Positions 2,688-58,942 are shown, counted from the first letter of the stretch. The stretch is DNA of 64,000 nt from Candidatus Latescibacterota bacterium (GCA_965197905.1 CBDAOB010000005.1:800524-864523); one strand, 5' to 3'. Made by a program: numbers and translations. The notes: generated from the sequence alone by a model not told the origin.

Positions 2688-3530
2688 ATGGAAAACGGAC
2701 ATCTACCGAGCACCAATGCCGACGGTGTGCCGATCGTTCCGATGACGGCGGCACAAAAATATCTTTTCGACTTGAAGGGGTGGATCTGCTTGCCGGCCCT
2801 CCTGACTACTGAGGAGCTTGAGCCGATTCTGGAGCACCAGTGGAAGTTCCTCAAGGAACCGGAGTCATTACCTCCGGAAGAGAGAAACGCTGTCGGCGGT
2901 CCGTCACAGATCCTCCTGGATCATCCCGTGATTGTGGGCATGCTCAATGAGGTTCTCTCCTACCAGCCCTTGGCCGACGAGAACTGCTACGGTTTTCGCT
3001 TCGAGCGTACGCGCACCGACCGCCGCACGTGCGATCGCGACTACTTCGAAGCCCACGGGGGCGCGGGTTATTTCAACTTCTGTGGCAACTCACACCTCTA
3101 TCAGATGCTGCCCAACAAGATCCACGCAGGCCTGACCAGAGTCGTCTGGGAGCTGAACGAAGTGCGGTCCGGCGACGGTACCCATCTGATCTCCGGCAGC
3201 CACAAGACCGCCTATGAGCGCGCGGACGAGATCTGCGGACGAGACAGCGATCTGTGGGAGACCTACGCCTGTCCACCGGGGTCGGTCATGATCTTCACCG
3301 AGGCGATCTGCCACACAGGGGTGAGGTGGGAAAATCAGGAGTGGGACCGCCTCAGTCTTTTTCACCTTTACAACACGGTCAACTCGCGCTGGGGTGCGCA
3401 CTCGGTTCCCCCGGAGGTAATCGCAACCATGCCGGAAAAGCGCCAGAGTCTCTTCCGCCCCGTCTACGTCGCCCGTGGCCCCGGGAATCGGGACAACCTG
3501 AAGTACGATGAGGCGACCTACGGCGTCTGA
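2688..3530 (+). CDS. PhyH-like Fe(II)/2OG oxygenase with an atypical H-x-G metal motif
   Basis: ATG 2688 lies 5 nt after AAAGGTGG; the ORF track starts at GTG 2679. PhyH layout: KGWICLPALLTTEELE near the N-terminus, SGDGTHLISGSHK (the PGSH-like strand) and the distal TEAICHTG. At the position where paralogues carry WH-x-D, this protein has EAHGGAG (His codon 3054-3056). Confidence 0.7.
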   Translation: MENGHLPSTNADGVPIVPMTAAQKYLFDLKGWICLPALLTTEELEPILEHQWKFLKEPESLPPEERNAVGGPSQILLDHPVIVGMLNEVLSYQPLADENCYGFRFERTRTDRRTCDRDYFEAHGGAGYFNFCGNSHLYQMLPNKIHAGLTRVVWELNEVRSGDGTHLISGSHKTAYERADEICGRDSDLWETYACPPGSVMIFTEAICHTGVRWENQEWDRLSLFHLYNTVNSRWGAHSVPPEVIATMPEKRQSLFRPVYVARGPGNRDNLKYDEATYGV

Positions 3531-4948
3531 TGCACCGGGAGCCAGGGGGTATTGTGGTTCCACTCCTCCAGGCGGCGGCGTGATGCCTCGGCCAGGTCGG
3601 ACTGCTGTGCGCTCCGGGCCAGGTTGTTCTGCTCGTACGGATCGGCGCGTAGATCGAAGAAGCAATAGCGATCATCGGCGATGGTCTGCCGGTCTTCGTC
3701 AAGCTGCACGCCGTAGAGGTGAGTCGGCGTGCGCAAACCGATCCACCATGTTTTACTCTTCTGTGCTCTGTCGGTCTCGATGAACGCCGCGTCGTCTTCG
3801 AGCACGTCACAGCTTCCGGTGATTATCGGTGCCAGGTTCCTTCCCTGCGCGCTTGGGGGCACCTCCCCGCCACACACTTCCAGCAACGTGGGCATCACGT
3901 CGATCATCTGGGCGACCTGGCCACTGTTTACCCGCGGCGCCCAGCGTCCCGGAGCGTGGAAGATCAAAGGGATGCGGATGGCCTCCTCGATGAGTTGGCT
4001 CTTGTTGAACAGGTGGTGGCTGCCCAGGTTGTCGCCGTGATCGGCTAGAAACACCACAATGGTGTCGTCGGCCAGTCCATGTCTCTGGAGGGCGGCTAAG
4101 AGCCGGCCCATCATGTCGTCGACCCAGGTGGTCAGACCATAGTAGAGAGCAGTCAGGTGCCGCAGGTCGAACCCTGCGGGCGGAGTGGTCGTGTGCGGCA
4201 GTTTCTCCTGGTAGTAGAGAAAGTCCCAGCAATAGATCTTGAACCAGTGCTCGTCGTAGGCCAGCTCGCCGTCCACATACACATTGGGTCTGAGGGGCAC
4301 TTCGTCGGGAGCGTAGATATTGAGGTAGTGTGCGGGCGCGTCCATCAGCGGCATGTGGGGTGGCGATATGCTGTAGAACAGGAAGAATGGTCGCTCCGTG
4401 CGCGCGCCCAGGTAGCTATCCACCCGCTCCGCCTCGAACTCCACGCTGAAGCCCTCCACTACCTCGCCCATGCCCGTGTTCTCGATGAAGGTCTGGCCCG
4501 TGTGGCGGTGGTGAACCCGCGGGAACAGGCTGTAGTCGAAACCGAGCAGGTGCGGTGCTGGCTGGATGTGCCACTTGCCGATCAGCGCGGTATCGTACCC
4601 CAGGTTCCTGAACTGCTCCGGCAGGGTGGGATCTACGAGCTGGTTCCGTTCCTGGAAGGGATACTCGTCCCGGAGGGGATCCGCGGGTGCTGCGTCCTTT
4701 CGGGTGCCATGGCGCGGGCTGCCCATACAGGTGCGGCTGTACTGACCGGAAATCAGGCACGAACGCGCCGGCGTACACACCGGATTGTTGGTGACGGCGT
4801 GCTCGAAACGCACGCCCTCCTGTGCCAGGTGGTCGAGATTCGGCGTGCGGATGACCGGATTGCCGTAGCAACCCACCTCAAAGGCGCGCAGCTGATCGCA
4901 CATGCAGACGACGACATTGGGTCTGTTGCTCACTGCATACCTCCGCAC
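3518..4948 (-). CDS. Cys-type (formylglycine) sulfatase, no signal peptide
   Basis: 476 aa. NVVVCMCDQLR...PVCTPARSCLISGQY contains the C-x-P-x-R sulfatase signature. The N-terminus MRRYAVSNRPNVVV runs straight into the catalytic core. It overlaps the convergent gene 2688-3530 by 13 nt and the upstream lipoyl-protein gene by 19 nt. Confidence 0.9.
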   Translation of the reverse strand: MRRYAVSNRPNVVVCMCDQLRAFEVGCYGNPVIRTPNLDHLAQEGVRFEHAVTNNPVCTPARSCLISGQYSRTCMGSPRHGTRKDAAPADPLRDEYPFQERNQLVDPTLPEQFRNLGYDTALIGKWHIQPAPHLLGFDYSLFPRVHHRHTGQTFIENTGMGEVVEGFSVEFEAERVDSYLGARTERPFFLFYSISPPHMPLMDAPAHYLNIYAPDEVPLRPNVYVDGELAYDEHWFKIYCWDFLYYQEKLPHTTTPPAGFDLRHLTALYYGLTTWVDDMMGRLLAALQRHGLADDTIVVFLADHGDNLGSHHLFNKSQLIEEAIRIPLIFHAPGRWAPRVNSGQVAQMIDVMPTLLEVCGGEVPPSAQGRNLAPIITGSCDVLEDDAAFIETDRAQKSKTWWIGLRTPTHLYGVQLDEDRQTIADDRYCFFDLRADPYEQNNLARSAQQSDLAEASRRRLEEWNHNTPWLPVHQTP

Positions 4949-5442
4949 GCAGCGCGCACCTCGTCTTCGGTGATTCTGCGGGCACCGCTCGAATCGCAGA
5001 GCTTCCGCCAGTCGACTCCGAGCTCCTCCGCCAGTCGGCGTGCCCGGGGACTGATTCTGTATCTTGATGTTTTAGGCCGCGCGGTAGCCGCTGGCTGCGG
5101 ATGTTCCTGTTCCGTCGCAGGCTCGACCCCAGGGACTGAGATCGGTTTCGGGTCAGGCGCGGAACTCGTCGCCGGCACCGCTGCGGGCGGCGACTCGCCT
5201 TCGGCCAGCAGATAGCCGAGAAGCGTACCGACGGCAACGGTCGCGCCCTCACCGGGAACACCGTCGGGGATGTGCAGAATGCCTTCGTCGAGCGATTCGA
5301 CCTGACTGAGGGCCTTGTCGCTCTCGACCGTAAAGAGAATCTCTCCCAGTCCGACGCGGTCGCCGTGTTTGACGAGCCACTCCACGAGGGTGCCCTCTTC
5401 CATGGTCCAGCCGAGACGGGGCATCGCGATTTCCACAGCCAT
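4930..5442 (-). CDS. Lipoyl-domain plus E3/E1-binding (PSBD) protein; E2 lacking the acyltransferase catalytic domain
   Basis: 170 aa. MAVEIAMPRLGWTMEEGTLVEW...TVESDKALSQVES is a lipoyl-lysine motif. It is followed by an Ala/Pro linker and ISPRARRLAEELGVDWRKL..SGARRITEDEV (PSBD). The ORF stops right after this domain. Confidence 0.85.
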   Translation of the reverse strand: MAVEIAMPRLGWTMEEGTLVEWLVKHGDRVGLGEILFTVESDKALSQVESLDEGILHIPDGVPGEGATVAVGTLLGYLLAEGESPPAAVPATSSAPDPKPISVPGVEPATEQEHPQPAATARPKTSRYRISPRARRLAEELGVDWRKLCDSSGARRITEDEVRAACGGMQ

Positions 5443-5456
5443 GAAGATTGCCCGCG

Positions 5457-6437
5457 CTATTCCTCAGCGAGGTGGCGGACGGCCTGCGCGATCTGTTCGG
5501 CCGACGGTACCACAGCACTCTCGAGTGGTGGGCTGTAGGGTGTCGGGGTGTGTACGCCGTTCAGCCGGCGCACCGGCGCATCCAGAGCGTCGAACCCCGT
5601 CTCCATCACCCGGGCAGCGATCTCGGAACCGATGCCGCATGGACCGAAAGCCTCGTCGACGACGAGCAATCGACCCGTCTTGTGCAGCGATGTCAGTATG
5701 GTATCCATGTCCAGTGGCGCGAGACACCTGGGATCGACGACCTCGACAGAGATGCCCTCATCGGCTAGCTGGTCGCATACGCCCAGCGTCTTCGGCACCA
5801 TGGGACCAAGGGCGACAACGGTTAGGTCAGCGCCTTCGCGACTGATCGCAGCCTGACCCAGCGCGATCTCGTACGCCTCCTCCGGCACGTCGCCACGACT
5901 GTTCAGCAGCGACTTGTGCTCCAGGAAGAGGACCGGATCGTCGCAGCTCAGGGCGGTGGCCATGAGCCCCTTGGCATCGTATGGGGTGGCCGGCAGCACG
6001 ACGCGGAAGCCGGGGACGTTCACAAACAGCGGGTAATAGCTGCCCGAGTGGTGCGTAGCGGCACCGCCGCCGACCCCGATGCAGCCGCGCAGCACGACGG
6101 GCATCTTGAGTCTGCCGCTGGACATATACTGGATCTTGGCGATCTGGTTCACCAGTTCGCCGACGGAGTCCAGCACGAAGTCGATGAACATGAAGTCGAC
6201 GACCGGTCGGGTGCCCGTCATGGCGGCACCGGTGCAGATGCCGACGAAGCCGCGCTCGCAGATCGGCGTGTCTCGCAGACGTCTGGCTCCGTGGCGCTCA
6301 AACAGGCCCGTCGTCGTTTTGAAGTTGCCGCCGCGCACGCCGATGCCCTCACCGAGCACGAAAATCGTCGGATCACGCTCCATCGCCGCGGTGAGCGCTT
6401 CGCGGGCCGCCTCGGTATAGGTGATTTCTCTGGTCAT
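5457..6437 (-). CDS. 2-oxoacid (pyruvate/acetoin-type) dehydrogenase E1 beta subunit
   Basis: MTREITYTEAAREAL...FVLGEGIG..GG.FKTT.GL...RLRDTPICE is the transketolase-like pyrimidine-binding module. The preferred start is ATG 6437, which overlaps the E1 alpha stop in an ATGA. Confidence 0.9.
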   Translation of the reverse strand: MTREITYTEAAREALTAAMERDPTIFVLGEGIGVRGGNFKTTTGLFERHGARRLRDTPICERGFVGICTGAAMTGTRPVVDFMFIDFVLDSVGELVNQIAKIQYMSSGRLKMPVVLRGCIGVGGGAATHHSGSYYPLFVNVPGFRVVLPATPYDAKGLMATALSCDDPVLFLEHKSLLNSRGDVPEEAYEIALGQAAISREGADLTVVALGPMVPKTLGVCDQLADEGISVEVVDPRCLAPLDMDTILTSLHKTGRLLVVDEAFGPCGIGSEIAARVMETGFDALDAPVRRLNGVHTPTPYSPPLESAVVPSAEQIAQAVRHLAEE

Positions 6438-7375: not shown

Positions 7376-7414
7376 GTCGAGGAGTGCATCTGTTGGATAT
7401 GGTCATGAGTGCAA

Positions 7415-8240: not shown

Positions 8241-9056
8241 TCAAGGGGCCCCTGGAGACCCTACTCGAGAACTAGTACGACGGATGTTCAACAACTGGTA
8301 AATACTGAAAAGACTGAGCGTGATGACAATCATTACCGTGCCTATGGCGTTGATATCCGGGGACATCTCGAAGCGTATCTTGGCAAAGACGACCGTTGGC
8401 AGGGTTTGGTTCGAAACCGAGGTCCAGAACATGGAACCGACGACGTTATCAAAGCTGATGATGAAGGCGATGATGGCGGCGCCGATGATGGCGGGAATCA
8501 TCAGGGGCAGGGTTACCTCCGTCAGCACTCGCAGCCGCGATGCGCCGAGGTTAAGGGCCGCCTCCTCCAGGGATCGGTCGAAGCCGTAGAGTCGAGCGCT
8601 TATTATGGAAACCACGTACGGCAGCAGCAACAGGGTATGGCCGATGGTCACGGTTACGTAGCCTCGCGGAATTCGCAGAAAGACAAAAAAGCTCAACAAA
8701 GCGACTCCGGTGATGATCTCCGGTACCAGCATCGGCGAGAACAGCGCCGCCTGCAAAATCGCCTTGCCGCGAAATTTGTGTCGTACCAGGCCAAAAGCCG
8801 CCGTGGTTCCGATTGCCACAGCCAGAACGGAACTACTCACCCCAACCAGGATGCTGAACCCAAGCGCACTCAAGGCCTCGGTATCACGGAGCAGTTGTAG
8901 ATACCACCGTGCCGACAGATTATTCATGGTGATTACACTGATGCTTTCGCTGAAGCTGAGCAGGACCACCACCAGAAGCGGCGCCAACAGGAATATATAG
9001 ACAAGGATTACGTAGACCCGCAAAGACAACCCGCCCCAGCCAAGACCCATCCGCAT
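8241..9056 (-). CDS. ABC transporter permease (PotC/spermidine-putrescine-type family)
   Basis: 271 aa with about 6 hydrophobic spans. An EAA-like loop is present: LEEAALNLGASRLRVLTEVTLP. Confidence 0.85.
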   Translation of the reverse strand: MRMGLGWGGLSLRVYVILVYIFLLAPLLVVVLLSFSESISVITMNNLSARWYLQLLRDTEALSALGFSILVGVSSSVLAVAIGTTAAFGLVRHKFRGKAILQAALFSPMLVPEIITGVALLSFFVFLRIPRGYVTVTIGHTLLLLPYVVSIISARLYGFDRSLEEAALNLGASRLRVLTEVTLPLMIPAIIGAAIIAFIISFDNVVGSMFWTSVSNQTLPTVVFAKIRFEMSPDINAIGTVMIVITLSLFSIYQLLNIRRTSSRVGSPGAP

Positions 9057-9058
9057 TT

Positions 9059-9949
9059 TTACCGCTCCTCACCCATGATCTTGTCCAGCCCCATTAGCGA
9101 ATTGAAAATCAGCAGGATACCGATCACCAGCACCAGGAGAACGATGGCGATGGCCGCACCAAGGGGCCAGTGGAAGGCCATCAAGAATTGGTCCTCGATC
9201 GCATTGGCAACCATATGATTTTTCGGCGCTCCCAACAAAACCGGGGTCACGAAAGCGCCGAAGGTCAGGATGAAGCAGATGATGCATCCTCCAGCCACGC
9301 CCGGCAGACTCAGGGGCAAGGTGACTTCTCTGAAAGCGCGAAAAGGCGTTGATCCCAAATTGCGCGCCGCTTCCAGCAACCGCCCGTCGATCTTCTCCAG
9401 GGTCACGAAGATCGGCAGGGCCATGAAGGGAATGAGCAGATGAACCATACCAACAATGACGGAAAATTCATTGTAGACCAAACTCAGAGGTTCCTCTACC
9501 AGGCCCGACAAGAGCAGAAATTGATTGACCACTCCGGTGTCCGACAGGATTGCCACCCAGGCGAAGTTCTTTACCAGGATGCTGGCAAACCACGGAACGA
9601 TCAGCAGGATCACCAGAAAGGCCCTCAACCCAGGGGCCGCAGTTACCAGGTAGGAACTAACTGGATAGGCAACCAGGAGCGTGATGAGGGTCACCTTGAA
9701 CGCTACCAAGAGCGAGTGCCCAGTCATCTTGAGATATAGACTGGAGGTCAAAAAACGTTGGTAGTTCTCCAATGTGAAGGTGAAATCAACCCCGCCGCCG
9801 GCAGTGCGGATGCTAAAGCTATAGACCAGCACGAACAGCATCGGCACGAAAAAGAAGGCCAGCAACCAGAACAACATGGGGGACAACGGCAGCCGTCCTC
9901 CCCGGGTAAGCGGCTGAAAAACACCGTGCCGCAGAAACCTTGTTACCAT
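9059..9949 (-). CDS. ABC transporter permease (PotB-type family)
   Basis: EAA loop LLEAARNLGSTPFRAFREVTLP. The preferred start is ATG 9949 (MVTRFLRHG...), 5 nt after the ATPase stop. The longer ORF-track start at 10144 would overlap the ATPase gene. Confidence 0.85.
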   Translation of the reverse strand: MVTRFLRHGVFQPLTRGGRLPLSPMLFWLLAFFFVPMLFVLVYSFSIRTAGGGVDFTFTLENYQRFLTSSLYLKMTGHSLLVAFKVTLITLLVAYPVSSYLVTAAPGLRAFLVILLIVPWFASILVKNFAWVAILSDTGVVNQFLLLSGLVEEPLSLVYNEFSVIVGMVHLLIPFMALPIFVTLEKIDGRLLEAARNLGSTPFRAFREVTLPLSLPGVAGGCIICFILTFGAFVTPVLLGAPKNHMVANAIEDQFLMAFHWPLGAAIAIVLLVLVIGILLIFNSLMGLDKIMGEER

Positions 9950-13470: not shown

Positions 13471-13655
13471 TTCTCGCTCCTGGTTGTTCGATAACTCCCC
13501 GTTTCGCCGTTTGAATACCGAAACGATGATGTTGTTGGGGGTTCCAGAATGTTGTCCTGGTCGATGTGGTAAGAGTCGTCTGTGGCTTCTGGCTGGCGAT
13601 TCTGTACCGGTTCATTACTCTCGACAGATTGGTACCTAACCAAAAGGACCGCAAA

Positions 13656-16167: not shown

Positions 16168-16171
16168 ACCC

Positions 16172-26133: not shown

Positions 26134-26346
26134 CCGCCAGTTTCGTGGAAAAGCCACTGAATCCGTCTGAGTTTTTTGTGCCAAAGCCAATTGTCTCGGG
26201 TATTTGTACCCCAACCGACTCGAGGCAGACATCCACGACCTTTTCGACAGAGAGTGAAATTCCAACAGAATAACGCTAACGCTTGAGATCAGAGAAAGGA
26301 AAGATCGTCGAGGTAACCGGCGTGGGCGGCAATTGCCTGGGTTTGG

Positions 26347-26375: not shown

Positions 26376-26395
26376 AGTTCGGTCGAGAGGAGCCC

Positions 26396-39441: not shown

Positions 39442-39497
39442 ATCAGCAACCTCCGCGTCCATCCGTTGCGGCCCGTGGTCACATGAACCTTGTAGTG

Positions 39498-48614: not shown

Positions 48615-49010
48615 CTATCCGACACCCCTCGGTCCGGCCGCGGTGTGCCCTGCGGTGGGGAACCAGATCAGGTCGACCAAGACGGAAGAGGCAACCCCGA
48701 CTATGTAACCGACCCCCATGCCGTAGAAAAACGGCTTGCCTGCCACGTAGGCGGCGACCCCGCCATAGCGTAGGAGGGTGGCTTTGACGCCCCAGACCAC
48801 CGCCAGATTAATCCAGTAGAGATCCAGCCAGAATGATTCCTGAAAAGCGAGACCGACCGGGTGCAAGGAGAACCAGTGGTAGCGACTGCGCAGGTAGGTC
48901 ATGCCCGCCGCTTGTAGCCATCCGAAGAGAAATACCCCGATCTTCTGCCAGTCCATAACTGTGCGGTTCTGGAGCATGTAGACCAAGGGGTCGAAGAAAC
49001 GGGCGGTCAT
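48615..49010 (-). CDS. C-terminal piece of membrane-protein paralogue D (split gene)
   Basis: 131 aa. MTARFFDPL...WFSLHPVGLAF...LLRYGGVAAYVAGKPFFYGMGVGYIVG aligns to the last roughly 130 aa of paralogues B and C (TAARFVE...WWPFHPVGFAI...LNYGGPALYERTKPFFMGIILGQFV). Its ATG overlaps the stop of 49007-50758 (ATGA). Confidence 0.75.
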   Translation of the reverse strand: MTARFFDPLVYMLQNRTVMDWQKIGVFLFGWLQAAGMTYLRSRYHWFSLHPVGLAFQESFWLDLYWINLAVVWGVKATLLRYGGVAAYVAGKPFFYGMGVGYIVGVASSVLVDLIWFPTAGHTAAGPRGVG

Positions 49011-50758
49011 CCACCACTCGAAGCTGATACCGGTGCCTCCCCCCGGTAGGTAGTATCGACGCGGGCGGCAACGGTGACGACAAAGACGAGGGCGAAAACT
49101 CCAAGGGTTACAAGGGTAACCGCTAGTGGCTGATGTCGCAGTGAAAAAAAACGCAAGCAGTGGGTGAGAGCGGGCCAGGCGGGGATCAGATTACCGCCGA
49201 AGAAGCCGGGGCTGGTGAACAGGTGGAATCCGGCCAACCCGCGCGCCGTGATGGGGGCCGTGCCCAACAGGTCGACCACAAAAGGGGCGCCCTTGACGAA
49301 TGGACGGTACGGAGCGAGGTAGGCGAACCCGCAGGCGGCGACGAGTTTGGTCGTAACAAAAAAGGTCAGGGACATCAGCAGGAAAGATCCCAGTGCTAAT
49401 GCCAGACTCATGCCTAAACTCATTGCCCAGACGACCACGTAGACCGCGGAAAGCACAAGCCCCACCCAGGCGAACCGATAGCGTCGGCGGAGATGGGCAT
49501 CGTCCCGTACTCGAAAAGCCATGCGCCAGGTCTCTCGCAGGTGACCTCGCGCGATCCATATCGCCCACACGGCGATGAACATCAAAGCTCCATAGTTTTC
49601 CATGAAGAGCAGCCGTTCGCCGCCGATCTGCTGGCCTTCCGCGCCGAACGAGATCCCGGTGCGAGTCAGCATACCTGCCTTGAAGAGACTCATGATACGG
49701 AAAAGGATCAGGCTGCCGAGAGTGTCCATCGGGCAGAGATAGGTCACCGCCATCACCAGCGGCATGTAGCGAATGTTGATCCGGTAGATCCAATCGCTCA
49801 CCTCGAAGCGAAAGATCTCGGTATTGAAAGGGAGAATCATGGCCATGGTGAAATAGGTGGAGATGTTGTAGAGGATCGGCACAAAAACCAATCCGAAACC
49901 GATCCAGAACAGTTTCGTTCGGAACAGGTCGGGTAGGCGGCGGCGACCATCCATGCCGCGCAGCAGGTCTAATGGCAGCTGGGCCAGCGGGAAGGCGAGT
50001 TTCTCACGGTCCTCCCATTGGGTCTGGAAGAGAACGAACAGGCAGTACCCGAAGGCCACCATCGCCAGGGAAACACCCAGCCATTGCAAGGTTATCTCGA
50101 TCCATCCCTCCCAGGGCACCAGGGCGCCGTCCGGAAGTCCGAGCCAAAAGCTGTCCAACACACGTGCACTCGTAGGAGCGAGCACATGCCACGGCAGGTA
50201 GTCGAAGAAATGCTCGGCGTACATGTTCTCGGGAGAGGCGAAATGGGTGGGTGAGGCGACCATCAACGACCATCGGCCCAACCAGTGGGGGAGGGTGCCG
50301 ACAATCCAGAGCATGGAAAGGATGGTCAGCAGCTCTCCGGTCTTGAGGGTTTGGGAGGGCCAGATCCGCGAGAAGCCCACGTTCAGGAAGATCCAGAGGA
50401 CGAACGGCATTAGGGCGAGCAGCGGCAGCTGCGAGTGGACGAAGTGTCCCACCCCCGAGCGCTCCGAGACGTAGATGACATAGAGGATCACGCCCACCGT
50501 GGTGGCCAAGCCCAGGACCACGCCTCTCAAGGTGATCGATGGAGTTGCCGAGACGGTGTTGTGATCAGGGTCGGAAATGGGCAAACCGTTCGTCCGGGGA
50601 GGGCAGGTCGGATGGATCGGCAAGTCTATTACATGTTCGGCTGGATTACAAGCAAGGTGTGGCCAGGCGGCAAAATCCGGCTGTTGCCGCTCGTGTTGGC
50701 TGTCGACTGCCTCTGTCCGCTGGATACCTCGCCAGCCTGATCCGTACGGCTTGACCAC
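49007..50758 (-). CDS. N-terminal piece of membrane-protein paralogue D (divergent copy)
   Basis: 583-aa ORF. HFASPENMYAEHFFDYLPWHVL and WEDREKLAFPLAQLPLDLL match the family motifs. It ends where the paralogues continue. The true start is uncertain, since no internal ATG lies near the first TM span. Confidence 0.75.
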   Translation of the reverse strand: MVKPYGSGWRGIQRTEAVDSQHERQQPDFAAWPHLACNPAEHVIDLPIHPTCPPRTNGLPISDPDHNTVSATPSITLRGVVLGLATTVGVILYVIYVSERSGVGHFVHSQLPLLALMPFVLWIFLNVGFSRIWPSQTLKTGELLTILSMLWIVGTLPHWLGRWSLMVASPTHFASPENMYAEHFFDYLPWHVLAPTSARVLDSFWLGLPDGALVPWEGWIEITLQWLGVSLAMVAFGYCLFVLFQTQWEDREKLAFPLAQLPLDLLRGMDGRRRLPDLFRTKLFWIGFGLVFVPILYNISTYFTMAMILPFNTEIFRFEVSDWIYRINIRYMPLVMAVTYLCPMDTLGSLILFRIMSLFKAGMLTRTGISFGAEGQQIGGERLLFMENYGALMFIAVWAIWIARGHLRETWRMAFRVRDDAHLRRRYRFAWVGLVLSAVYVVVWAMSLGMSLALALGSFLLMSLTFFVTTKLVAACGFAYLAPYRPFVKGAPFVVDLLGTAPITARGLAGFHLFTSPGFFGGNLIPAWPALTHCLRFFSLRHQPLAVTLVTLGVFALVFVVTVAARVDTTYRGEAPVSASSGG

Positions 50759-50816
50759 GCAACTTTCGCTGCACTTAGTATTGACATCCCTTCAACCCAA
50801 AACAGAACGGAGTCTC

Positions 50817-51767
50817 GTGAGCTCTCACAAATTCAAATTGGGCATGTTCCTGACCGAACCGCAGCTGCCGTTCGAAGAAACCCTGGATCTGGCAGCGGAG
50901 CTGGGCATCAAATACCAGTGGTACATGTGCAACGGCGAAGTAAGCGGTAGGCGCGAAGACAAGGCTCTGGTGGATATGAGCGAAGCCGAGCTCGACGCGA
51001 TGCAGGCGAAACTCAAGTCCCGCGGCCAGGAGTTTTTTCTGCTGCTCAACCGACCCCATTTCAAGGGCATCCACCTGACCGATTTCGACCTCGACAACAT
51101 GGAAGAGCACCCCACCTTCAAGCGCGACTTCACCGAGCTCGTGCGCACGATGGAGGTCGCTACCTACCTCGGCGCCCCTGCCGTCAACGTATTCTCCTTT
51201 CTATGGCCTGGAGAGCTGGCCGGGAAACAAACCTGGCCGATGCGCTGGATGACCCGCGGCGGCATCATCTCCGATCTGGATATGGACAAGCTGGTCAAGG
51301 CGTTCTCACTGATCATGGAACAGGGTGAACGCCACAACGTCGATGTGGCCGTATCGATGATGCCCTGGAACTATACCAACACCACCGGCAACTTCCGACG
51401 TGTCGCCGAGCGGGTCGGCTCCCCGCGCATGAAAGTGATGTGGGGACCGGCCGACAACACCAACTGCGGAGAAACCGATGCGGCTACGGCGGGATTCCAC
51501 AATCTGCGCCCCTATATCTACGGCCTGCACATCAAGGATCTGCGCGTCAATGACGGTCTGAGCCTGGATTTCGAGTACTGCCCGTTTGGGGAGGGGGACA
51601 CCGATTACCCAACCGTGTTTCGCAACCTGCGCGACCACGACTGCGATGTCTTCGTCTCTTTAGCAACCCACTTCCAACCGCCCGGAGGCACCAACGTCGA
51701 CGCCATGCGCATCAACGCAGCCAACATCAAGAAGCTGCTCAATCAGATCGAAACAGAAACGGCGTGA
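50817..51767 (+). CDS. Xylose-isomerase-like TIM-barrel protein (sugar phosphate isomerase/epimerase family)
   Basis: GTG 50817 lies 4 nt after GGAG (50809-12) and gives VSSHKFKLGMFLTEP... The ORF-track start at 50577 would overlap the divergent membrane gene. This is an AP-endonuclease-2-type TIM pattern (LGAPAVNVFSF, GLHIKD). Confidence 0.7.
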   Translation: MSSHKFKLGMFLTEPQLPFEETLDLAAELGIKYQWYMCNGEVSGRREDKALVDMSEAELDAMQAKLKSRGQEFFLLLNRPHFKGIHLTDFDLDNMEEHPTFKRDFTELVRTMEVATYLGAPAVNVFSFLWPGELAGKQTWPMRWMTRGGIISDLDMDKLVKAFSLIMEQGERHNVDVAVSMMPWNYTNTTGNFRRVAERVGSPRMKVMWGPADNTNCGETDAATAGFHNLRPYIYGLHIKDLRVNDGLSLDFEYCPFGEGDTDYPTVFRNLRDHDCDVFVSLATHFQPPGGTNVDAMRINAANIKKLLNQIETETA

Positions 51768-51786
51768 CGGAGGTAGGAGCGCGCTG

Positions 51787-53424
51787 ATGGCTGCAGCCAA
51801 CGGCAATAGGTTGCGTCACATCTTCGTCGAGGATGCAGCACAGTGGTTCCACCATCTTTTCATATCCAAAGATGGACCGGAGAATATCCGCGTCGAAGAA
51901 GCGAGAAGGCGGGTGCTGGACACCTTCGTCGAGCCTTTGCTGGCGACCGCGGTGGAAGGCGTCACCTACCGAATCTGCCAAGGCAACCATTTCCTATTCT
52001 ACGATTCCAAGGTGGCGCCGTGCCTCGGCGACACCGTCGAGCTGTTGGATCGGTATCCTTTCGCTCACCGCAGCAAGCAAATCTACTCCGCCGAAGGTCC
52101 TCGAGGTCTGTGGAACACGGCGGAGAATTTCCGCCGCTTTCGCGAAGCCGGATGGGACCCTCACAAGGCTATCATCGAGCGTCTCCACGAGGCCGGCAAG
52201 AAGGCGTATATAAAGACTCGCATCAACGACACCCACGTAAGCGCCCGCCGGCTGTGGTTCGATTACACCGGCTCCCGCGCCCGGGGCACGGACGAATTCC
52301 TCTCACACCCGGAGTTGATGCTGGGTTACCTCGATCAGCGCGACGTTTCGGGCGGTTTCTGCCTGGCCAGCGATTTTTGCCTTGAGGAGGTGCGCACCCG
52401 CCGTCTCGCCGAGATCGAGGAGATCTGTGAGCGCTATGATCTGGACGGCCTCGAGATCAACTTTTGCCGCAGCTATCACCTTTTCAAGCAAAACGAGATA
52501 GACAAGGGCCGAGAGCTGCTGACCGATTTCTTTCGGCAGATGCGTCGCATTCTCGATCGGCTGGGCGCGGAACGCGGTAGACGGCTTCAAGCCATCGTCC
52601 GCTTCCACGTATGCTGTGGCACCGAGCGCCATTATCAGGACATGGAGTATGAAGAAGGGGCGGACATCGTCCGCTGGATGCGCGAAGAGCTGGTGGACAT
52701 TGTTGTTCCCACCGTGCCGGTAGCTGCCGCCGAAGGCGCGCGCTACGTGGCGAAATATGTAGAGGCAGCGCAGGGTTTGCCCTGCTCCGTCTTCGCCGGG
52801 ACCCGCAATCCGAATCACGACGACCTCGCCTTGCGTCCGGTTACCAAAGAGATCCTGCGGGCGCAAATATGTGCGTACGAGCGTGCCGGCGTTGACGGGG
52901 TCTACCACTGGTGGCCTCGCATAGATCCGGATCACGCCAATTGGGAGCTACTTAAGGATGTCGGTGATCCCCCCAGGCTGGCGGCGGCAGACAAACATTA
53001 TGTGGCTTCCGAGCATCTGCCGCTGGCGCTGGCAGGTACCGGCAACACTGTGCCGTTGTTGGTGGCTGACGATCTTCAGGATGCGGCGGCCAAGGGGATA
53101 CTGGGCGAGGCGCGCCTGCGCCTCCGCTTTCTGCATCTGAGACCCGGAGATGAGCTCGATTGGAGGGTCAATGGCGAGCTCGTTCCGGCGAAGGCCTTCA
53201 GAGCACCAGAATATCCATCAGAGCCGTATGTCTCGGGTCGGGTTGATGCGATCCTTGCCGGGCCGACGCTTCCCAAGCTGGGCGAGAACATGCTGACGAT
53301 CTCGGTGACGAAAAGAGATGTCGGCGCGGCCGACATGCCCGACGATCGTCGACGCCTCGGCGAGTTGATCCTGAGAAATGTCGAGCTGACCGTGCGCTAC
53401 ACCAACCCGGGGCAACGCAATTGA
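51787..53424 (+). CDS. Glycoside-hydrolase-like TIM-barrel protein, tandem paralogue 1 (function unknown)
   Basis: 545 aa. Contains NFRRFREAGWDPHKAIIERLHEAGKKAYIKTRINDTH and YDLDGLEINFCRS. It is colinear with 53421-55148. Confidence 0.5.
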   Translation: MAAANGNRLRHIFVEDAAQWFHHLFISKDGPENIRVEEARRRVLDTFVEPLLATAVEGVTYRICQGNHFLFYDSKVAPCLGDTVELLDRYPFAHRSKQIYSAEGPRGLWNTAENFRRFREAGWDPHKAIIERLHEAGKKAYIKTRINDTHVSARRLWFDYTGSRARGTDEFLSHPELMLGYLDQRDVSGGFCLASDFCLEEVRTRRLAEIEEICERYDLDGLEINFCRSYHLFKQNEIDKGRELLTDFFRQMRRILDRLGAERGRRLQAIVRFHVCCGTERHYQDMEYEEGADIVRWMREELVDIVVPTVPVAAAEGARYVAKYVEAAQGLPCSVFAGTRNPNHDDLALRPVTKEILRAQICAYERAGVDGVYHWWPRIDPDHANWELLKDVGDPPRLAAADKHYVASEHLPLALAGTGNTVPLLVADDLQDAAAKGILGEARLRLRFLHLRPGDELDWRVNGELVPAKAFRAPEYPSEPYVSGRVDAILAGPTLPKLGENMLTISVTKRDVGAADMPDDRRRLGELILRNVELTVRYTNPGQRN

Positions 53425-55148
53425 TCGTGGACGGAACAGACTATCGCATATTTGTTGCCGACAGCGGGGAGCAATGGCACGGACCGGCCTATCTGACCAC
53501 CGACTGTCCGGCGGAAATGCGGGTCGAAAGGGCGCGCGAGCGGATCTTGAACGACTTCGTGTATCCCTTTGTCAACTCGGGTACGGATGCCTTGATATTC
53601 CGCGTCGATGCGGGCAATCAGTTTCTGTGTTACGACACCCGGGTGGGTGAGCCGGTTACGGTGATTCAAAGCCGCCTGGAGAACGATTACGGGCTGATAC
53701 CTCGCAACGCGGGCGGTCCCGAGTACGTCTCCTTCCCGCACGCGCTGGGCTGGTGGCGGCTGGCTGAAAATTTCAGACTTTTCCAGCAGCACGGATTCGA
53801 TCCTTGGAAGACGATCATTGAGGCAGCCCATCGCCATGGCATCGAAGTGTTTCTGGAGCTGCAGATCAATCGGGCGGATGCGGCGATCCACTACCTCGAT
53901 GGCTCGCACGTTCCAATCAGTCGTTTCGCCCTCGAGAACAGCGAGTATCTGCTCGGTTACGATTGCCATCGCACCGATCTCAGCGGGACGGAGTCAGAGG
54001 CGTACCGAGCGATGTACCAGAGTCCCGCCCCCGATGGCGATACTCACTCCAAGCCCGAAACCGCCTTCTGCCCACGTCTGGATTTCGGGCGCGGGGAGGT
54101 CCGTGAGTTGCGTCTGGAGACCATAGAGGAGGTCTGCCGGCGTTACGAAATCGATGGCCTCGAGCTCAACTTCTGCTTCGATCCCCATTTCTTCAGGAAG
54201 GACCAGGTTGGCGGCGCCCAGATCATGTCGGAGTTCATGTCGGCAACGAAAGCCGTCATGGACAGAATTGGTACCGAGCGCGGTCGGTCCATTCGGCTAC
54301 TGGCCCGGTTCTTCGCCCACAAGGGTCTCGAGTTCTTACGCCGGCAAGTTGGCCTCGATGTCTCCTCCTGGATCGCCGAAAAATCGGTGGATATTCTGGC
54401 GCCGGTTGGATCCACTACCGCGACGGAGCACGTCAGTGGCGTGGCTGATTGTGTGACTGCGGCGCGCGGCACGGACTGTCAAGTATTGGGCTGTCTCAGC
54501 GAAATCATGAGCGACCAGTTTACCCAGATACGTCCGAGCGCAGAGATGCTGCAGGCCGCCAATTCCCTGTATCGCAACGCTGGCGTCGACGGTCTGCACG
54601 TGTGGTGGCCCCGTCACCAGAGCGTTTCGAGCGACTTCCAGCAGCCCGAAGACTACAGTCTGCTGCGAGACCTCAAGTCCAGGTCCACCTGTGCGACGTT
54701 CGACAAACATTATTTGTTGTTCGACCAGCTGCCGCACCGGTTGGATGAAGGAAGCCAGTACGCCGTCAAGTTGGAGGTGGGGGACGATCTGGAGGCGGCC
54801 TATGCGCGCGGAGCTATTGAGAAGATGATTCTCGTTATCGGCCTCAGACACTTCACCGCAGACGATGACGTAGTCTTCAGTTGCAACGGCAAGACCATCC
54901 CTCCGAAAGATTTCATCGAACCGGATTTCCCCCTGATCTGGTACTGCGTCGGTCGTCTTGAGATATCGCTGCAGGAAGACAACCTGAAACAGGGAACGAA
55001 CGAAATCGGCTTGCGAGTGAACCGCCACGTGCCCGACGCCGAAGGCATGACCCTCGATGCTGACGATCCGCGGCGTCCAGACCAGCTGATTTTTACGAAC
55101 CTGGAGCTGATCATCAAAAACCGGGAAGTGAACGCTCCAGGAGGGTGA
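53421..55148 (+). CDS. Glycoside-hydrolase-like TIM-barrel protein, tandem paralogue 2
   Basis: 575 aa. Its TTG start overlaps the upstream stop (TTGA). Contains NFRLFQQHGFDPWKTIIEAAHRHGIEVFLELQINR and YEIDGLELNFCFD. Confidence 0.5.
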   Translation: MIVDGTDYRIFVADSGEQWHGPAYLTTDCPAEMRVERARERILNDFVYPFVNSGTDALIFRVDAGNQFLCYDTRVGEPVTVIQSRLENDYGLIPRNAGGPEYVSFPHALGWWRLAENFRLFQQHGFDPWKTIIEAAHRHGIEVFLELQINRADAAIHYLDGSHVPISRFALENSEYLLGYDCHRTDLSGTESEAYRAMYQSPAPDGDTHSKPETAFCPRLDFGRGEVRELRLETIEEVCRRYEIDGLELNFCFDPHFFRKDQVGGAQIMSEFMSATKAVMDRIGTERGRSIRLLARFFAHKGLEFLRRQVGLDVSSWIAEKSVDILAPVGSTTATEHVSGVADCVTAARGTDCQVLGCLSEIMSDQFTQIRPSAEMLQAANSLYRNAGVDGLHVWWPRHQSVSSDFQQPEDYSLLRDLKSRSTCATFDKHYLLFDQLPHRLDEGSQYAVKLEVGDDLEAAYARGAIEKMILVIGLRHFTADDDVVFSCNGKTIPPKDFIEPDFPLIWYCVGRLEISLQEDNLKQGTNEIGLRVNRHVPDAEGMTLDADDPRRPDQLIFTNLELIIKNREVNAPGG

Positions 55149-55152
55149 GGCG

Positions 55153-56586
55153 ATGGGAGACAACGGTAGATTCCGCATTCCACGGGGCCAGCGACAGTTG
55201 TTTATCGACGACCACGGTGTCGCCCAGATGGAGGGGGTGACCCGCGTCCTGCATCAGCCTTCGAAGAAGGGAGCGGTCATCCGACCCGATTTCTCCAAGG
55301 GCGAAAGAGGTGTGCAGACCCGGAGTGCGCCCTACTGGGATTCGCAAGCGGAGCGGTTTCGGCTGCTTGCCGATTCAGTCTGGTATGAAAGTGTTGACGG
55401 TCTGCACTGGGGCCGCAGCGAGAAGCAGTTCGAGAGTGGCGACGATACCCCCGCATACTGTGTCTTGTACGACGAGAAGGATCCCGATTCCAAACGGCTT
55501 TACAAAGGTTTCACCATGCACACCATCGACCCGGCGACGGGAAGGGTCGTGCGCGACGACTCCGAGATGGTCGACCCCGAGGGCAGGCCGTGGCCGGGCA
55601 AGAAATTCCAAATGCTCCTCGATTTCGTCGTATCGCCGAATGGCCAGGATTGGCGGCGTCTGGACTGCTCCCTGCCCAGCTCGGACGAACAGAACCTCAG
55701 CTATGATTCGCTCGGCGGCCAGTATATCGTCTCCTTGAAGCGCGGCGGCACCTATGGTCGCTCCCATGCCATCACCACCAGTCCGGACTTCGAGAGTTGG
55801 ACCGAACCGGTGCTGGCGATCCAGACAGACGATCTTGATCAAGAGCTGGGCAGGTTGCACATCGAGGAGCTGCTGCAGACGGCCAACGCCGACTACCTCC
55901 GCCCCTTTCCCAACACCGCGGCATGGCATTGGCAGAACGTGGACATCTACAACGCCGGGGTCTTCTGCTACGAGGGCATTTTTCTCGCGTTGCCGGCGAT
56001 CTATCACGCCCGCGGCGAGCGCTGGACGAGCCACACCTTGCGCTTCACCCTGATTCAGCTGTGGCACAGCCGCGATCTCTACACGTGGGAACGCGCCGCC
56101 CACCGGCAGACCTTCCTTCCCTGGTCACCGCTGGGCAGCGGCGCCTACGACCTTACCAAGAACATGCCCCCATCCTACCCGTTGGTGTGGGGAGATGAGC
56201 TGTGGTTCTATTACACCGGCGGCAAGGAGTACTCTGACCACCAGAATCCGGCCTCCGATCATTTCGCCGTATGCCTGGCGGTCCTCCGCCGCGATGGTTT
56301 CATCTCACTGGATGCCGGCGGGGACCAGGGATCGATAACCACGGAGCCGTTTGTTTTGCCCGAGGGTGCGCTGTGGGTCAATGCAGACGCGCGGCGGGGG
56401 CAGGTCGTTGTCGAGCTTCTGGACAGCGAGGGCAACGTGACCGCGGTGTCGGCAGATTTGGAAGGGGATCATCGCCGCGTACAGGTGCAGTGGGACGAGG
56501 GGAATCTCTCCGCCGCCGCGGGTTCACCGGTTCAGCTCCGCTTCACGCTGCGGAGCGCATCTCTGTATTCCTACTGGATTGAATAG
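55153..56586 (+). CDS. GH32/43/68-clan-like beta-propeller plus C-terminal beta-sandwich protein, no signal peptide
   Basis: 477 aa. Contains ESVDGLHWGR and WHSRDLYTWER. The C-terminus is LRRDGFISLDAG..GSITTEPFVLPEGALWVNADARRGQVVVELLD...VQLRFTLRSASLYSYWIE. RBS GGAGGGTGAGG. Confidence 0.55.
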   Translation: MGDNGRFRIPRGQRQLFIDDHGVAQMEGVTRVLHQPSKKGAVIRPDFSKGERGVQTRSAPYWDSQAERFRLLADSVWYESVDGLHWGRSEKQFESGDDTPAYCVLYDEKDPDSKRLYKGFTMHTIDPATGRVVRDDSEMVDPEGRPWPGKKFQMLLDFVVSPNGQDWRRLDCSLPSSDEQNLSYDSLGGQYIVSLKRGGTYGRSHAITTSPDFESWTEPVLAIQTDDLDQELGRLHIEELLQTANADYLRPFPNTAAWHWQNVDIYNAGVFCYEGIFLALPAIYHARGERWTSHTLRFTLIQLWHSRDLYTWERAAHRQTFLPWSPLGSGAYDLTKNMPPSYPLVWGDELWFYYTGGKEYSDHQNPASDHFAVCLAVLRRDGFISLDAGGDQGSITTEPFVLPEGALWVNADARRGQVVVELLDSEGNVTAVSADLEGDHRRVQVQWDEGNLSAAAGSPVQLRFTLRSASLYSYWIE

Positions 56587-56876
56587 AGCTAGTCCAGCCG
56601 AAAGGTGGTCCGGCCATAAAGTGTGCTAGCTCAGGCTCCTCATGGATCTGCAGTCTGACATCTCCCATCGCCAATCCTTCCTCGGTAGGGCCCCATACCG
56701 CCAGAGGTGGTGGAACAGGCCAGTGTCCGAGGTCAGCGATCGCCGACTTGGTGCTGGTAGTGCCGAAATCTATCCAGATAGGGCGTCATCTGTTCAGCTC
56801 ATGTTGTCCGCGTCAAGGGGATCATCTAATTTTTCGGCAAGTCGTCAAGCCAGGAAGGACCGGAGGCATTCGCGCT

Positions 56877-57812
56877 ATGCAGCTGTCAGCGTCGCAGATC
56901 GAGCACTTCGAAGAAGAGGGATACCTGGTCGTGGAGGGCGCCCTCCACGATTCCGACCTGGATCCAGTCATTCGCGAATACGAGGAGTTGATCGGGATTG
57001 TGGCGGAGCGCTGGCTGGATGAGGGGAAGATCCGTTCGTTGCACACCGCTGCACCGTTCGAGACGCGCCTGATTAGAATCTGCGACGAGAATCCGGAGCT
57101 CGTGGCCCAAATCAACGATCTATTCGATCTGTACCGTGCCCGGGGCCGGCGCACCTTCGAGTTTCTGCGCAACGACAACCTTCTGGATCTCGTGGAGGAT
57201 TTGGTGGGCCCGGAAATCATCTGCAGTCCCATTCAACACATGCGGCCAAAACTGCCAAGCCGGCTGGTCGCCGACTACCACTCGAGTGCTTCCCACGTGG
57301 CAGCCTGGCACCAGGACGCCGGCGTAGCCAAGGAAGATGCCGATCCACACTTCATCCTCACGGTCTGGATCTCAATGACCAAAGTGACCCGCGAAAACGG
57401 TTGTCTGCAGGTCATTCCTCGAACGCAGGAGGGCGGGTTGTTAAATCACGAGACCGTTCCCGAGTTCGGAACCCGAATTCGGGCCGAGGAATTGCCGGAG
57501 ATAGAGCCGGTTGATCTGCCCATGGAGAAGGGGAGTCTGGTCCTGATTCACAAAAATATACCCCACCGCTCAACCCCCAATCTTTCGGACGGAATCCGCT
57601 GGAGCATGGACCTGCGCTATCAGAAGACCGGCACCTCCACCGGCAGGACCATCTACCCCGACTTCGTTGTGCGCAGCCGGTCCAATCCCGCCTCGGTGTT
57701 AACCGACCATTCGGCGTGGTCGAGGATGTGGGTGGAAGCCCTTGAGGCCGAGACGTCGCTCGGGGCCGATAGGCACCATCGCTGGGAAACGGCGACCGCG
57801 GAGCAAGGTTAG
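56877..57812 (+). CDS. PhyH-family Fe(II)/2OG dioxygenase
   Basis: ATG 56877 lies 10 nt after GGAGG. Contains MQLSASQIEHFEEEGYLVVEGAL, AAWHQDAG (H-x-D), ENGCLQVIPRT and IPHRSTPNLSDGIRW. Confidence 0.85.
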   Translation: MQLSASQIEHFEEEGYLVVEGALHDSDLDPVIREYEELIGIVAERWLDEGKIRSLHTAAPFETRLIRICDENPELVAQINDLFDLYRARGRRTFEFLRNDNLLDLVEDLVGPEIICSPIQHMRPKLPSRLVADYHSSASHVAAWHQDAGVAKEDADPHFILTVWISMTKVTRENGCLQVIPRTQEGGLLNHETVPEFGTRIRAEELPEIEPVDLPMEKGSLVLIHKNIPHRSTPNLSDGIRWSMDLRYQKTGTSTGRTIYPDFVVRSRSNPASVLTDHSAWSRMWVEALEAETSLGADRHHRWETATAEQG

Positions 57813-58099
57813 TGCCTCCAGAACGACCGTCGAATGTGGCGGGGGATCTATCGAGCGGAACACAGCCCGGGGTCAATATCCCCCCTCTTCAACCACGACT
57901 TTTCGCTTCCGCCAATTAGGCGGAACATCGTCGGAATATCCCGGATCCGAAGCCAGTCCAGTATTTCGATCCAAAAACAGGGGAAAATCCTCCTTTGGCG
58001 GCTTGGAGCGAATATAGCCGTGAGCGTAGCTGCGCATGATAATGCGGGTTCAATGCGTCAGAGCGTCTTGGAGAATCGACGAGGCGCACGATCGCGAAC

Positions 58100-58942
58100 C
58101 TAGACGTCGTCGAGAATCCCCACCGGCGGCTCGTAGTTCTGGCCCTCGAGCGGGGGCAGGGGCCATCCCGGTCCCGAGGGACGCTGGAAGCGGTCGCTCT
58201 TACCGCACAGCCACAGGAACATTTGGGCGCCGTCCTGGTGGGCGCGGTATTGCTCACCGAAGCGCGGCTCGAGACGCCCGAACTCGACGCCGCCGATGTC
58301 CAGATCCGGCTCGCGAACCCAGTCGCGCGTGGGCGCCGCCGTCCGGCTCATGGAGCCGGTCAGCATGTAGCGGATGCCGGGCGCCCGGCACTTGGCGCGG
58401 CGGTGCCAGATGGAGTAGTGCGTCAGGTAGATGGACCCGGCTGGACCGATCGCCTTGTAGGTGCCGCGGAACGAGTCGTAGTGCGCCATGAAGCGGACCT
58501 GGTTGAAGGCGAGGTGGGAGCCGGAGACGAAGATCGTGGGTCCCGTGTCTTCGGTCGCTTCGCTGGGGATATAGTACCACTTCAGCGTGCGTACCTTAGG
58601 ACCCCACTTGGAGCAGCCGTCGATGTGCCACTGCCCGGCGGGCCCAGGCCCCTCGCCGCGGAACCAGGCCAGCCACTCGGGCTCCCGGTAGTTGGGGCCC
58701 AGTAGCGAGCGCATGGCACCCGTAGCCTCGGGATTGCGTATCACCTGCTCGAAGAACCATTCTTCCTCGAGCAACCTACTGATCTGAAACCTGCCGGTTT
58801 TGGCGTGGTATTCGTCCATGAACTCGCGCGCCTGCTTGTTGACGTCATCCGGGACGACCCCCGGGAGCATGAGATGACCGTTGCGGCAGAATTCGATGAC
58901 CTGGGAATCGGTGAGTGTCGGTTTGCTGTCGTGGGTTCTCAT
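58100..58942 (-). CDS. PhyH-family Fe(II)/2OG dioxygenase
   Basis: 280 aa. Motifs NGHLMLPGVVPDDV, QWHIDG (H-x-D), TGPTIFVSGSH and IWHRRAKCRAPGIR. Confidence 0.85.
   Translation of the reverse strand: MRTHDSKPTLTDSQVIEFCRNGHLMLPGVVPDDVNKQAREFMDEYHAKTGRFQISRLLEEEWFFEQVIRNPEATGAMRSLLGPNYREPEWLAWFRGEGPGPAGQWHIDGCSKWGPKVRTLKWYYIPSEATEDTGPTIFVSGSHLAFNQVRFMAHYDSFRGTYKAIGPAGSIYLTHYSIWHRRAKCRAPGIRYMLTGSMSRTAAPTRDWVREPDLDIGGVEFGRLEPRFGEQYRAHQDGAQMFLWLCGKSDRFQRPSGPGWPLPPLEGQNYEPPVGILDDV

Follow-up and report, generated by a model that had tools for sequence, protein, structure and literature searches.

The 64,000-nucleotide stretch analysed here, hereafter the window, comes from a Candidatus Latescibacterota bacterium (GCA_965197905.1, CBDAOB010000005.1:800524-864523) and carries ten intact genes of the PhyH superfamily of Fe(II)/2-oxoglutarate (2OG) oxygenases, several of them interleaved with genes for a polytopic membrane protein of the DUF6785/DUF6784 type. 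Spurious open reading frames (ORFs) are common at the G+C content of the window (~60%); the genes were picked by ORF length, third-position G+C and Pfam support, which gave ~50 genes, 20% of them being the ten oxygenase genes (c1 to c10). The Pfam family PF05721 was recovered above its gathering score in nine of the ten (23-93 bits versus a cut-off of 22; E-values from 3e-26 to 1e-4), and c1 was assigned by profile, solved-structure and fold comparisons. All ten ORFs can thus be placed in the PhyH branch of these oxygenases, and the count of ten PhyH-type genes in 64 kb proposed in the initial annotation is borne out; the hidden Markov model (HMM) search places nine of them inside the family rather than outside the superfamily. 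HMM and phmmer scans of every window ORF of at least 70 aa did not find an eleventh member. For c1 (2688), c3 (33093), c4 (36772) and c9 (56877), the start was adjusted according to L014, a public contig that is nearly identical to the window; in the six genes on the minus strand, the coordinate previously called the start is the stop-codon end.

From left to right, c1 (2688-3530, plus strand) is a divergent PhyH-fold oxygenase with a HygX-like metal site (H123-G-G125, E205-x3-H209, R221), followed at a distance by c2 (26396-27238, plus; PF05721 E-value 6.6e-19; H120-C-D122, H207, R217), whose matches in the PDB are distant (AsqJ, PrhA and KanJ). Three minus-strand genes are found next: c3 (32164-33093; H118-R-D120, H195, R206), which is barely over the PF05721 cut-off (23.0 bits versus 22); c4 (35294-36772; 492 aa with the start taken from L014), which combines a PhyH domain (E-value 1.7e-8) with C-terminal HEAT repeats (HEAT_2, 8e-28); and c5 (36811-38256), a tandem paralog of c4 with the same PhyH-HEAT fusion (4.7e-10 and 3e-29, respectively). 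The gene c6 (42391-43260, plus; PF05721 E-value 1.1e-12; H125-C-D127, H207, R218) is convergent with c7 (43285-44214, minus; 4.2e-7) and has a counterpart in L014 and no tblastn match in L001, a locus of a related genome in which c7 has an ortholog of 84% identity. Further downstream, c8 (46293-47180, minus; 1e-14) presents the motif H103-Y-N105-D106, c9 (56877-57812, plus; H145-Q-D147, H230, R241) has the best PhyH score of all (E-value 3.4e-26), and c10 (58100-58942, minus; 3.4e-6; H106-I-D108, H180, R191) finds its nearest kin in the window in the catalytic domain of c4 and c5 (24-29% identity; BLASTP to c5, E-value 6e-17). None of the ten oxygenases approached an NCBIfam equivalog cut-off.

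The H-x-D...H...R layout that the initial annotation had attributed to most of these proteins is canonical in eight (c2-c7, c9 and c10; residue roles were read from alignments), but c1 and c8 depart from it. The arginine expected to bind the C5-carboxylate of 2OG was found in ten of ten, at +9 to +12 from the distal histidine.

For the c1 protein itself, neither Pfam nor NCBIfam gave a match. Its family comprises 801 database relatives, many of them with a precomputed PF05721 assignment and named phytanoyl-CoA dioxygenase family protein, and a profile of this family aligned to a profile of the other nine oxygenases with 96.7% probability (hhalign, E-value 3e-10). Among solved structures, the best sequence match of the c1 profile was HygX (E-value 1.7e-6, aligned over residues 18-236). 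The double-stranded β-helix fold was compared for c1 among the ten oxygenases: its AlphaFold (AF2) model has a mean predicted local distance difference test (pLDDT) of 72.5, with the H123 region poorly modelled (pLDDT <50), and Foldseek retrieved FtmOx1, SptF, HygX, AsqJ and GriE (E-values ~1e-9, template modelling score, TM, ~0.58). In HygX, an orthoester-forming enzyme of hygromycin B biosynthesis (PDB 4XC9/4XCA/4XCB), the metal-binding carboxylate has moved beside the distal histidine and a glycine takes its usual place, giving H-X-G...E-X3-H (PMC13374393). This unusual metal motif is common to the c1 family, in which H123-G-G125, E205-x3-H209 and R221 are invariant columns. In contrast, the c1 family is just ~17-20% identical to HygX, and its residue aligned with Lys137 of HygX is not invariant. 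Unlike HygX, c1 is a widespread gene, ~60% identical across Latescibacteria, Gemmatimonadota, Poribacteria and Armatimonadetes, and c1 genes adjoin lactonase, TIM-barrel or methyltransferase genes, whereas HygX belongs to an aminoglycoside cluster. An H-x-G motif also recalls the Fe/2OG halogenases of the SyrB2/WelO5 type; this assignment was rejected for c1 because the invariant E205 lies four residues before the distal H209, and the glutamate of E-x3-H serves as the carboxylate ligand in HygX. Matches to the halogenase model TIGR01762 were seen for c8 and c9, at sub-threshold scores only. The gene located ~180 nt upstream of c1 (714-2507, plus) encodes a 597-aa fusion of a homocysteine S-methyltransferase (PF02574) and a class-I S-adenosylmethionine methyltransferase of the PrmA/MTS-like type. 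It was considered as a conserved partner of c1 and discarded, as only the close relative L095 retains it; in another lineage, c1 homologs sit by lactonase, CoA-transferase and TIM-barrel genes.

In c8, H-Y-N-D replaces H-x-D, and the segment WHYND is kept in its orthologs at L001 and at L003, another related locus, and in its closest database relative (P0361); in the wider c8 family, the aspartate of H-x-D is present in at least 90% of the sequences. The subfamily of c3 and c7 presents SPQAF instead of the usual PGSH strand motif and has a conserved basic C-terminal tail, KKYGPRWR[FY]T..GTRR. No solved relative of this subfamily was found at an E-value <0.4, and c7 has no close solved structure. 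The best PDB matches of c9 are PHYHD1 (E-value 8.6e-11) and PHYH (2.7e-9), and it has the canonical H-Q-D, distal H and R; O-demethylation of a sugar by way of hydroxylation would be one plausible activity. Nevertheless, the similarity of c9 to PHYHD1/FJS and PHYH is remote and lies mainly in the C-terminal half.

The oxygenases are mutually divergent. BLASTP identities reach 77% for c3/c7 and 67% for c4/c5, and all other pairs are at most 29% identical or undetectable, so that the ten genes form eight clusters at 60% identity. The initial annotation had described them as divergent apart from two recent pairs; the divergence holds, but the pairs are old duplications, as the synonymous divergence (Ks) is 0.90 for c3/c7 and 0.87 for c4/c5, and both types of each duplicated oxygenase occur in related genomes. 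The ratio of nonsynonymous to synonymous divergence (Ka/Ks) was 0.06-0.23 in all ten pairs tested, paralogous and orthologous, and these are therefore working genes rather than decaying copies. The further proposal of a battery acting on a family of related substrates finds no support, because eight lineages at ≤29% identity, two of them with a non-canonical metal motif, point to different substrates or chemistries rather than to one substrate family. In contrast, we agree that the sequence does not reveal a substrate: solved structures are all remote from these proteins, and the equivalog models give no lead.

Four DUF6785/DUF6784 genes are interleaved with the PhyH genes. Two of them, at 33195-35159 (minus; PF20581 E-value 1.5e-117 plus PF20580; 12 hydrophobic segments) and 44307-46277 (minus; PF20581 E-value 1e-114 plus PF20580), are 72% identical. 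A third, distant member (27% identical to the others) lies at 48615-50758 (minus), with PF20581 at 49007-50758 and PF20580 in another frame at 48615-49190; the two frames overlap by ~180 nt beside a T8 run (~49143-49150), and the split is due either to misassembly of the homopolymer or to a genuine frameshift in a pseudogene. The fourth (3-563, minus; PF20581 E-value 4e-27) is an N-terminal part, cut by the left boundary of the window; a full-length ortholog is present in L095 (93% identical), with two more PhyH genes past it. These proteins are ~650 aa long, with 10-12 hydrophobic segments. An AF2 model of the 44307-46277 protein, built from 40 homologs, is of good quality (pLDDT 86, predicted TM score 0.88), and its sole strong Foldseek match in the PDB was the barley transporter Yellow Stripe 1, HvYS1 (7WSR; E-value 2e-6; TM 0.64/0.69 over ~690 columns); it was the only one with TM >0.2 among the 50 matches listed, the next TM being 0.18. 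DUF6785/6784 is therefore predicted from the model to be a permease of the oligopeptide transporter (OPT)/Yellow-Stripe fold, to which it corresponds over the full length, both being polytopic. However, DUF6785/6784 is a separate Pfam family, and no link to OPT at the sequence level was found in Pfam, NCBIfam or a PDB profile search at E-values up to 10; for this reason, we refer to an OPT transporter fold and not to an OPT family member. No searchable paper mentioning DUF6785 was found.

The first two permease genes are each enclosed by oxygenases. The order is a PhyH gene of the c8 or c4 type, the DUF6785/6784 gene, and a PhyH gene of the c3/c7 type, and it occurs twice in the window, as cassette 1 (c4, 33195-35159, c3) and cassette 2 (c8, 44307-46277, c7). 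Intergenic gaps are 15-134 nt, c8 being 15 nt from the permease start. The cassette recurs around the corresponding permease genes in L001-L004, loci from three other Latescibacterota genomes: c3/c7-type genes are found downstream of DUF6785 in all four loci, and c4-type genes upstream of it in L002 and L004. The same PhyH subtypes thus occupy the same positions in four genomes, with permease orthologs 73-84% identical. Each DUF6785 copy is closer to its counterpart in another genome than to its window paralog, and the similar Ks of the two cassette copies for permease (1.10) and oxygenase (0.90) fits a duplication as one block. The nearest genome is a Candidatus Latescibacterota metagenome-assembled genome (permease 97% identical). 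Cassette 1 is embedded in a co-directional run of nine minus-strand genes: DUF1800 (40688-42100), DUF1501 (39498-40631), an NHL-repeat protein (38359-39501; these three by Pfam), c5, c4, the permease, c3, a UxuA-like dehydratase (31289-32167; PF03786 E-value 1.3e-67) sharing 4 nt with the stop end of c3, and a DUF8034 protein (29170-31230; PF26099 as annotated on the L014 ortholog). The NHL/DUF1501/DUF1800 genes, co-directional with c5, keep the same order in L001 and L014. This PhyH-permease-PhyH arrangement around an OPT-fold protein is apparently undescribed.

The C-terminal ~180 residues of c4 and c5 are alphaRep/PBS-lyase-type HEAT repeats, which match alphaRep/HEAT structures. The fusion is stable: the best 120 database clusters for c5 all combine PhyH and HEAT (43-99% identical, at least 97% query coverage), including sequences from Poribacteria. 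PhyH-HEAT genes occur as tandem duplicates not only in the window but also at L001 and at one locus from Poribacteria.

A local abundance of PhyH genes has a precedent in this latter phylum. No Pfam family is more abundant than PF05721 in the sponge-associated Poribacteria, where it accounts for >1.9% of the genes versus <0.049% in every other genome then available; clustering at 60% identity divided 305 PhyH sequences into 193 groups, and a function could not be assigned to most of them (Kamke et al. 2014, PMC3909097). As in the window, these are many highly divergent paralogs. A sponge origin is suspected for the sample of the window as well. The fetched Poribacteria locus carries four PhyH genes in 21 kb, two of them PhyH-HEAT in tandem, so that both the local density and the tandem fusions are comparable to those of the window, and Poribacteria members of the c1 and c4/c5 families are 61% and 43-48% identical, respectively. 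In contrast, the host phylum differs, the nearest genomes of the window being Candidatus Latescibacterota, and the one fetched Poribacteria locus lacks the PhyH-DUF6785/6784-PhyH cassette. This kind of expansion is therefore already known, and the window represents a Poribacteria-type PhyH expansion, here in Latescibacterota, a phylum for which we found no paper reporting it. Against the published Poribacteria background of ~2%, which is not that of this genome itself, ~1 PhyH gene per 50 genes is expected, and the probability of ten or more is ~1e-7 (Poisson) and far smaller against ordinary genomes. Nevertheless, the related loci hold 7 (L001), 3 (L002), 2 (L003), 3 (L004), 3 (L095) and 2 (L097) PhyH genes per ~22 kb. 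All of them were seeded on PhyH or DUF6785 and hence give a biased sample of density; the window is not a unique hotspot and may not be exceptional. The precedent, the permeases, the cassette and the PhyH-HEAT fusions were all missing from the initial annotation.

Concerning the other genes, the sulfatase-fold, sialidase-like and sugar-acid neighbours noticed initially are present according to Pfam, with a sulfatase at 3518-4948, BNR/sialidase-like (BNR_2) proteins at 13566-14771 and 19570-20691, and, as other catabolic types, an HpcH/HpaI aldolase, DHDPS-family and GFO/IDH/MocA proteins and xylose-isomerase-like TIM barrels. Components of an ATP-binding cassette (ABC) importer and of E1/E2 2-oxoacid dehydrogenase are also encoded. 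A crude hydropathy scan gave no hydrophobic segment for the sulfatase, DUF1501, DUF1800, the BNR protein at 19570 and large proteins of unknown type, and an N-terminal hydrophobic stretch for the BNR protein at 13566-14771. The product of 21067-23025 (plus), one of three scanned proteins with a hydrophobic segment in the N-terminal region, has a stretch resembling a signal peptide and a C-terminal FlgD_ig/Por_Secre_tail (type IX sorting) region; a homolog lies near the L003 cassette. An ORF on the minus strand (23143-26505) adjoins c2, its annotated start overlapping c2 by 110 nt. Homologs of this type (~1050-1120 aa; 55-61% identical) are found just upstream of the cassette in three other genomes (L002 3952-6876, L003 5973-8840, L004 4198-7107).

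Beyond c8, the gene at 47544-48488 (plus) is divergent from cassette 2 and encodes a polyamine-aminopropyltransferase-like protein (NCBIfam "fused MFS/spermidine synthase" subfamily, 94 bits) kept in L001 (95%). Its linkage to the cassette, considered in relation to nicotianamine, was rejected, as no homolog was found in the fetched parts of L002-L004. A plus-strand run (50577-57812) then comprises a xylose-isomerase-like TIM barrel, two GHL10-like paralogs, a 477-aa protein and c9. The paralogs (51787-53424 and 53421-55148) are adjacent, 33% identical and show only a sub-threshold signal for GHL10 (glycoside-hydrolase-like). Their homologs at L097, a locus located 0.5 Mb from L001 in the nearest genome, are found at 4684-6294 and 8270-9871, upstream of another DUF6785 paralog, around which 17891-19507 and 55153-56586 have homologs as well.

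Elsewhere in the window, an E2-like gene (4930-5442, minus; 170 aa) beside E1 alpha/beta encodes lipoyl and E3-binding domains without the acyltransferase catalytic domain, and the recurrent pair of AtuA-like and DUF4387 genes (14794-16528, plus) lies between a BNR-repeat protein and an M20 peptidase. Rfam and tRNA scans of the window found nothing. In the relatives, IS91/Y2, DDE and IS1595 transposase genes and a restriction-modification pair occur within otherwise syntenic PhyH-rich regions (L095 290-1744 and 13202-15436; L097 17422-19849), so that mobile elements may have a part in the rearrangements that separate the window from L001. DDE transposase genes also interrupt the E1-beta gene of L095.

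Our preferred reading, which we hold with somewhat more confidence than doubt, is that PhyH genes have multiplied and diversified in this lineage as parts of cytoplasmic scavenging modules, together with a permease, hydrolase-like proteins and sugar-acid-type enzymes. We infer the scavenging role from the permease fold, the lack of hydrophobic segments in most of the enzymes, the catabolic-type neighbours and the homologs at L097 of three unannotated proteins. In such modules, the OPT-fold permease would import a small organic substrate, which the flanking cytoplasmic oxygenases would hydroxylate using Fe(II), 2-oxoglutarate and O2; hydroxylation beside an oxygen or nitrogen would result in dealkylation, and the products of the nearby dehydratase, aldolase and dehydrogenase genes could feed what is released into central metabolism. 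Different paralogs would most likely serve different substrates, and the HEAT-fused c4 and c5 are likely to dock on a protein partner or some other macromolecule. The PhyH-family enzyme PHYHD1/FJS demethylates 2'-O-methyl ribose (PMC12709175); as sugar O-demethylation is thus in the repertoire of the family, dealkylation of methylated sugars becomes a concrete possibility. The proposed organisation recalls polysaccharide utilisation loci, which likewise consist of repeated transporter, hydrolase-like and modifying modules with paralogous modules elsewhere in the genome. In contrast to these loci, the window contains neither a SusC/D pair nor a TonB receptor, oxygenases dominate instead of glycoside hydrolases, and most of the window enzymes checked lack a hydrophobic segment.

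Several observations weigh against this interpretation. The window may be an ordinary sample of its own genome with respect to PhyH frequency. The motifs of c1 and c8 deviate from the canonical triad, which makes their activity uncertain, and the predicted OPT assignment comes from the fold, with no Pfam OPT or PDB sequence match. The large ORFs at 17891-19507, 23143-26505, 29170-31230 and 51787-56586 have no Pfam (E-values up to 1), NCBIfam or PDB match except for the sub-threshold GHL10 signal. Among 80 metagenome loci with a DUF6785 protein 27-54% identical to those of the window, nine hold any PhyH gene and one holds it adjacent, and PhyH was not found at Armatimonadota/Fervidibacter loci or at that of a 59% identical DUF6785 homolog. 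A deep association of DUF6785 with PhyH was rejected on the basis of these loci; the link is missing outside the closest relatives, so that the pairing is young and could be a by-product of the very high PhyH density.

This last point leads to the alternative that survives best, although we consider it doubtful: a genome-wide swarm of PhyH paralogs without local function, in which any 64-kb stretch would be PhyH-rich and the adjacency of permease and sugar-acid genes incidental. The presence of 2-7 PhyH genes per ~22 kb in six of six fetched loci of close relatives, the two additional ones found in a relative to the left of the window, the same local density in Poribacteria at >1.9% of genes genome-wide, and the loss of the DUF6785-PhyH link in more distant genomes would all be expected in this case. 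However, incidental adjacency hardly explains why the exact order and the subtypes of the cassette are kept in four genomes despite permease identities of 73-84%, why its gaps are as short as 15-134 nt, or why permease and oxygenase have a similar Ks, which suggests joint duplication; moreover, loci seeded on PhyH or DUF6785 do not provide a true background.

A more specific and bolder proposal, which we put forward tentatively and regard as unlikely, is that of "import-and-unlock" cassettes, in which a new bacterial branch of the OPT fold would deliver protected compounds and the paired 2OG oxygenases would strip the protecting group. Candidate compounds would be O- or N-methylated sugars, nucleosides, peptides and aminocarboxylate chelators, and the oxygenases involved would include those with HygX-type and H-x-N-type sites.

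It is improbable that at least c4 and c5 act instead on macromolecules, hydroxylating or demethylating a protein or nucleic acid gripped by the HEAT solenoid. Classic HEAT repeats are binding scaffolds, and the full-length fusion is kept in all of the best 120 clusters and in a second phylum; nevertheless, the genes lie directly upstream of the permease in three genomes (window, L002 and L004), their tandem duplication (window, L001 and the Poribacteria locus) is more typical of catabolic genes that diversify their substrates, and only two of the ten genes would be accounted for. Quite improbable as well is a biosynthetic tailoring cluster, in which a secondary metabolite would be modified by the oxygenases, in the manner of FtmOx1, AsqJ, HygX and SnoK, and exported by the permease. 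The nearest solved structures of several members are indeed natural-product tailoring enzymes, and methyltransferase genes are present at 714-2507 and 47544-48488. However, PhyH enzymes of biosynthetic pathways are over-represented in the PDB and the matches share just 12-20% identity, Pfam scans of the main window ORFs detected no core of the polyketide synthase, nonribosomal peptide synthetase, terpene synthase, ribosomally synthesised and post-translationally modified peptide (RiPP) or glycosyltransferase type, and the neighbours are of hydrolase, dehydratase, aldolase and importer types. Finally, a metallophore system that would make, take up or recycle a nicotianamine- or mugineic-acid-like chelator is very improbable. 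In its favour, the permease matches a single fold, that of HvYS1, which transports Fe(III)-phytosiderophores, an aminopropyltransferase-like gene is divergent from cassette 2 in both the window and L001, and mugineic acids are hydroxylated by 2OG dioxygenases in plants. However, no homolog of that gene was found in the fetched parts of L002-L004, neither a nicotianamine-synthase nor an opine-dehydrogenase family turned up, the OPT fold carries peptides too, and the 2OG subfamily of the plant enzymes is a different one.

The role of the very large sets of PhyH genes in uncultured bacteria of the Poribacteria kind has been a question since 2014, to which the window brings handles rather than an answer. 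It shows that a PhyH-type expansion also exists in Latescibacterota, and two Pfam families named as domains of unknown function, DUF6785 and DUF6784, receive a predicted fold and hence a probable role. In addition, a widespread family, ~60% identical across phyla, is identified by the rare iron site with a relocated carboxylate of the HygX type. With its defined PhyH subtypes and a permease of recognisable fold, the cassette is small enough to be expressed heterologously and screened for substrates. If the import of protected compounds followed by their oxidative unlocking were true, rapid duplication of whole cassettes would allow Latescibacterota (and Poribacteria, by analogy) to widen their diet when feeding on organic matter that is recalcitrant or derived from a host.

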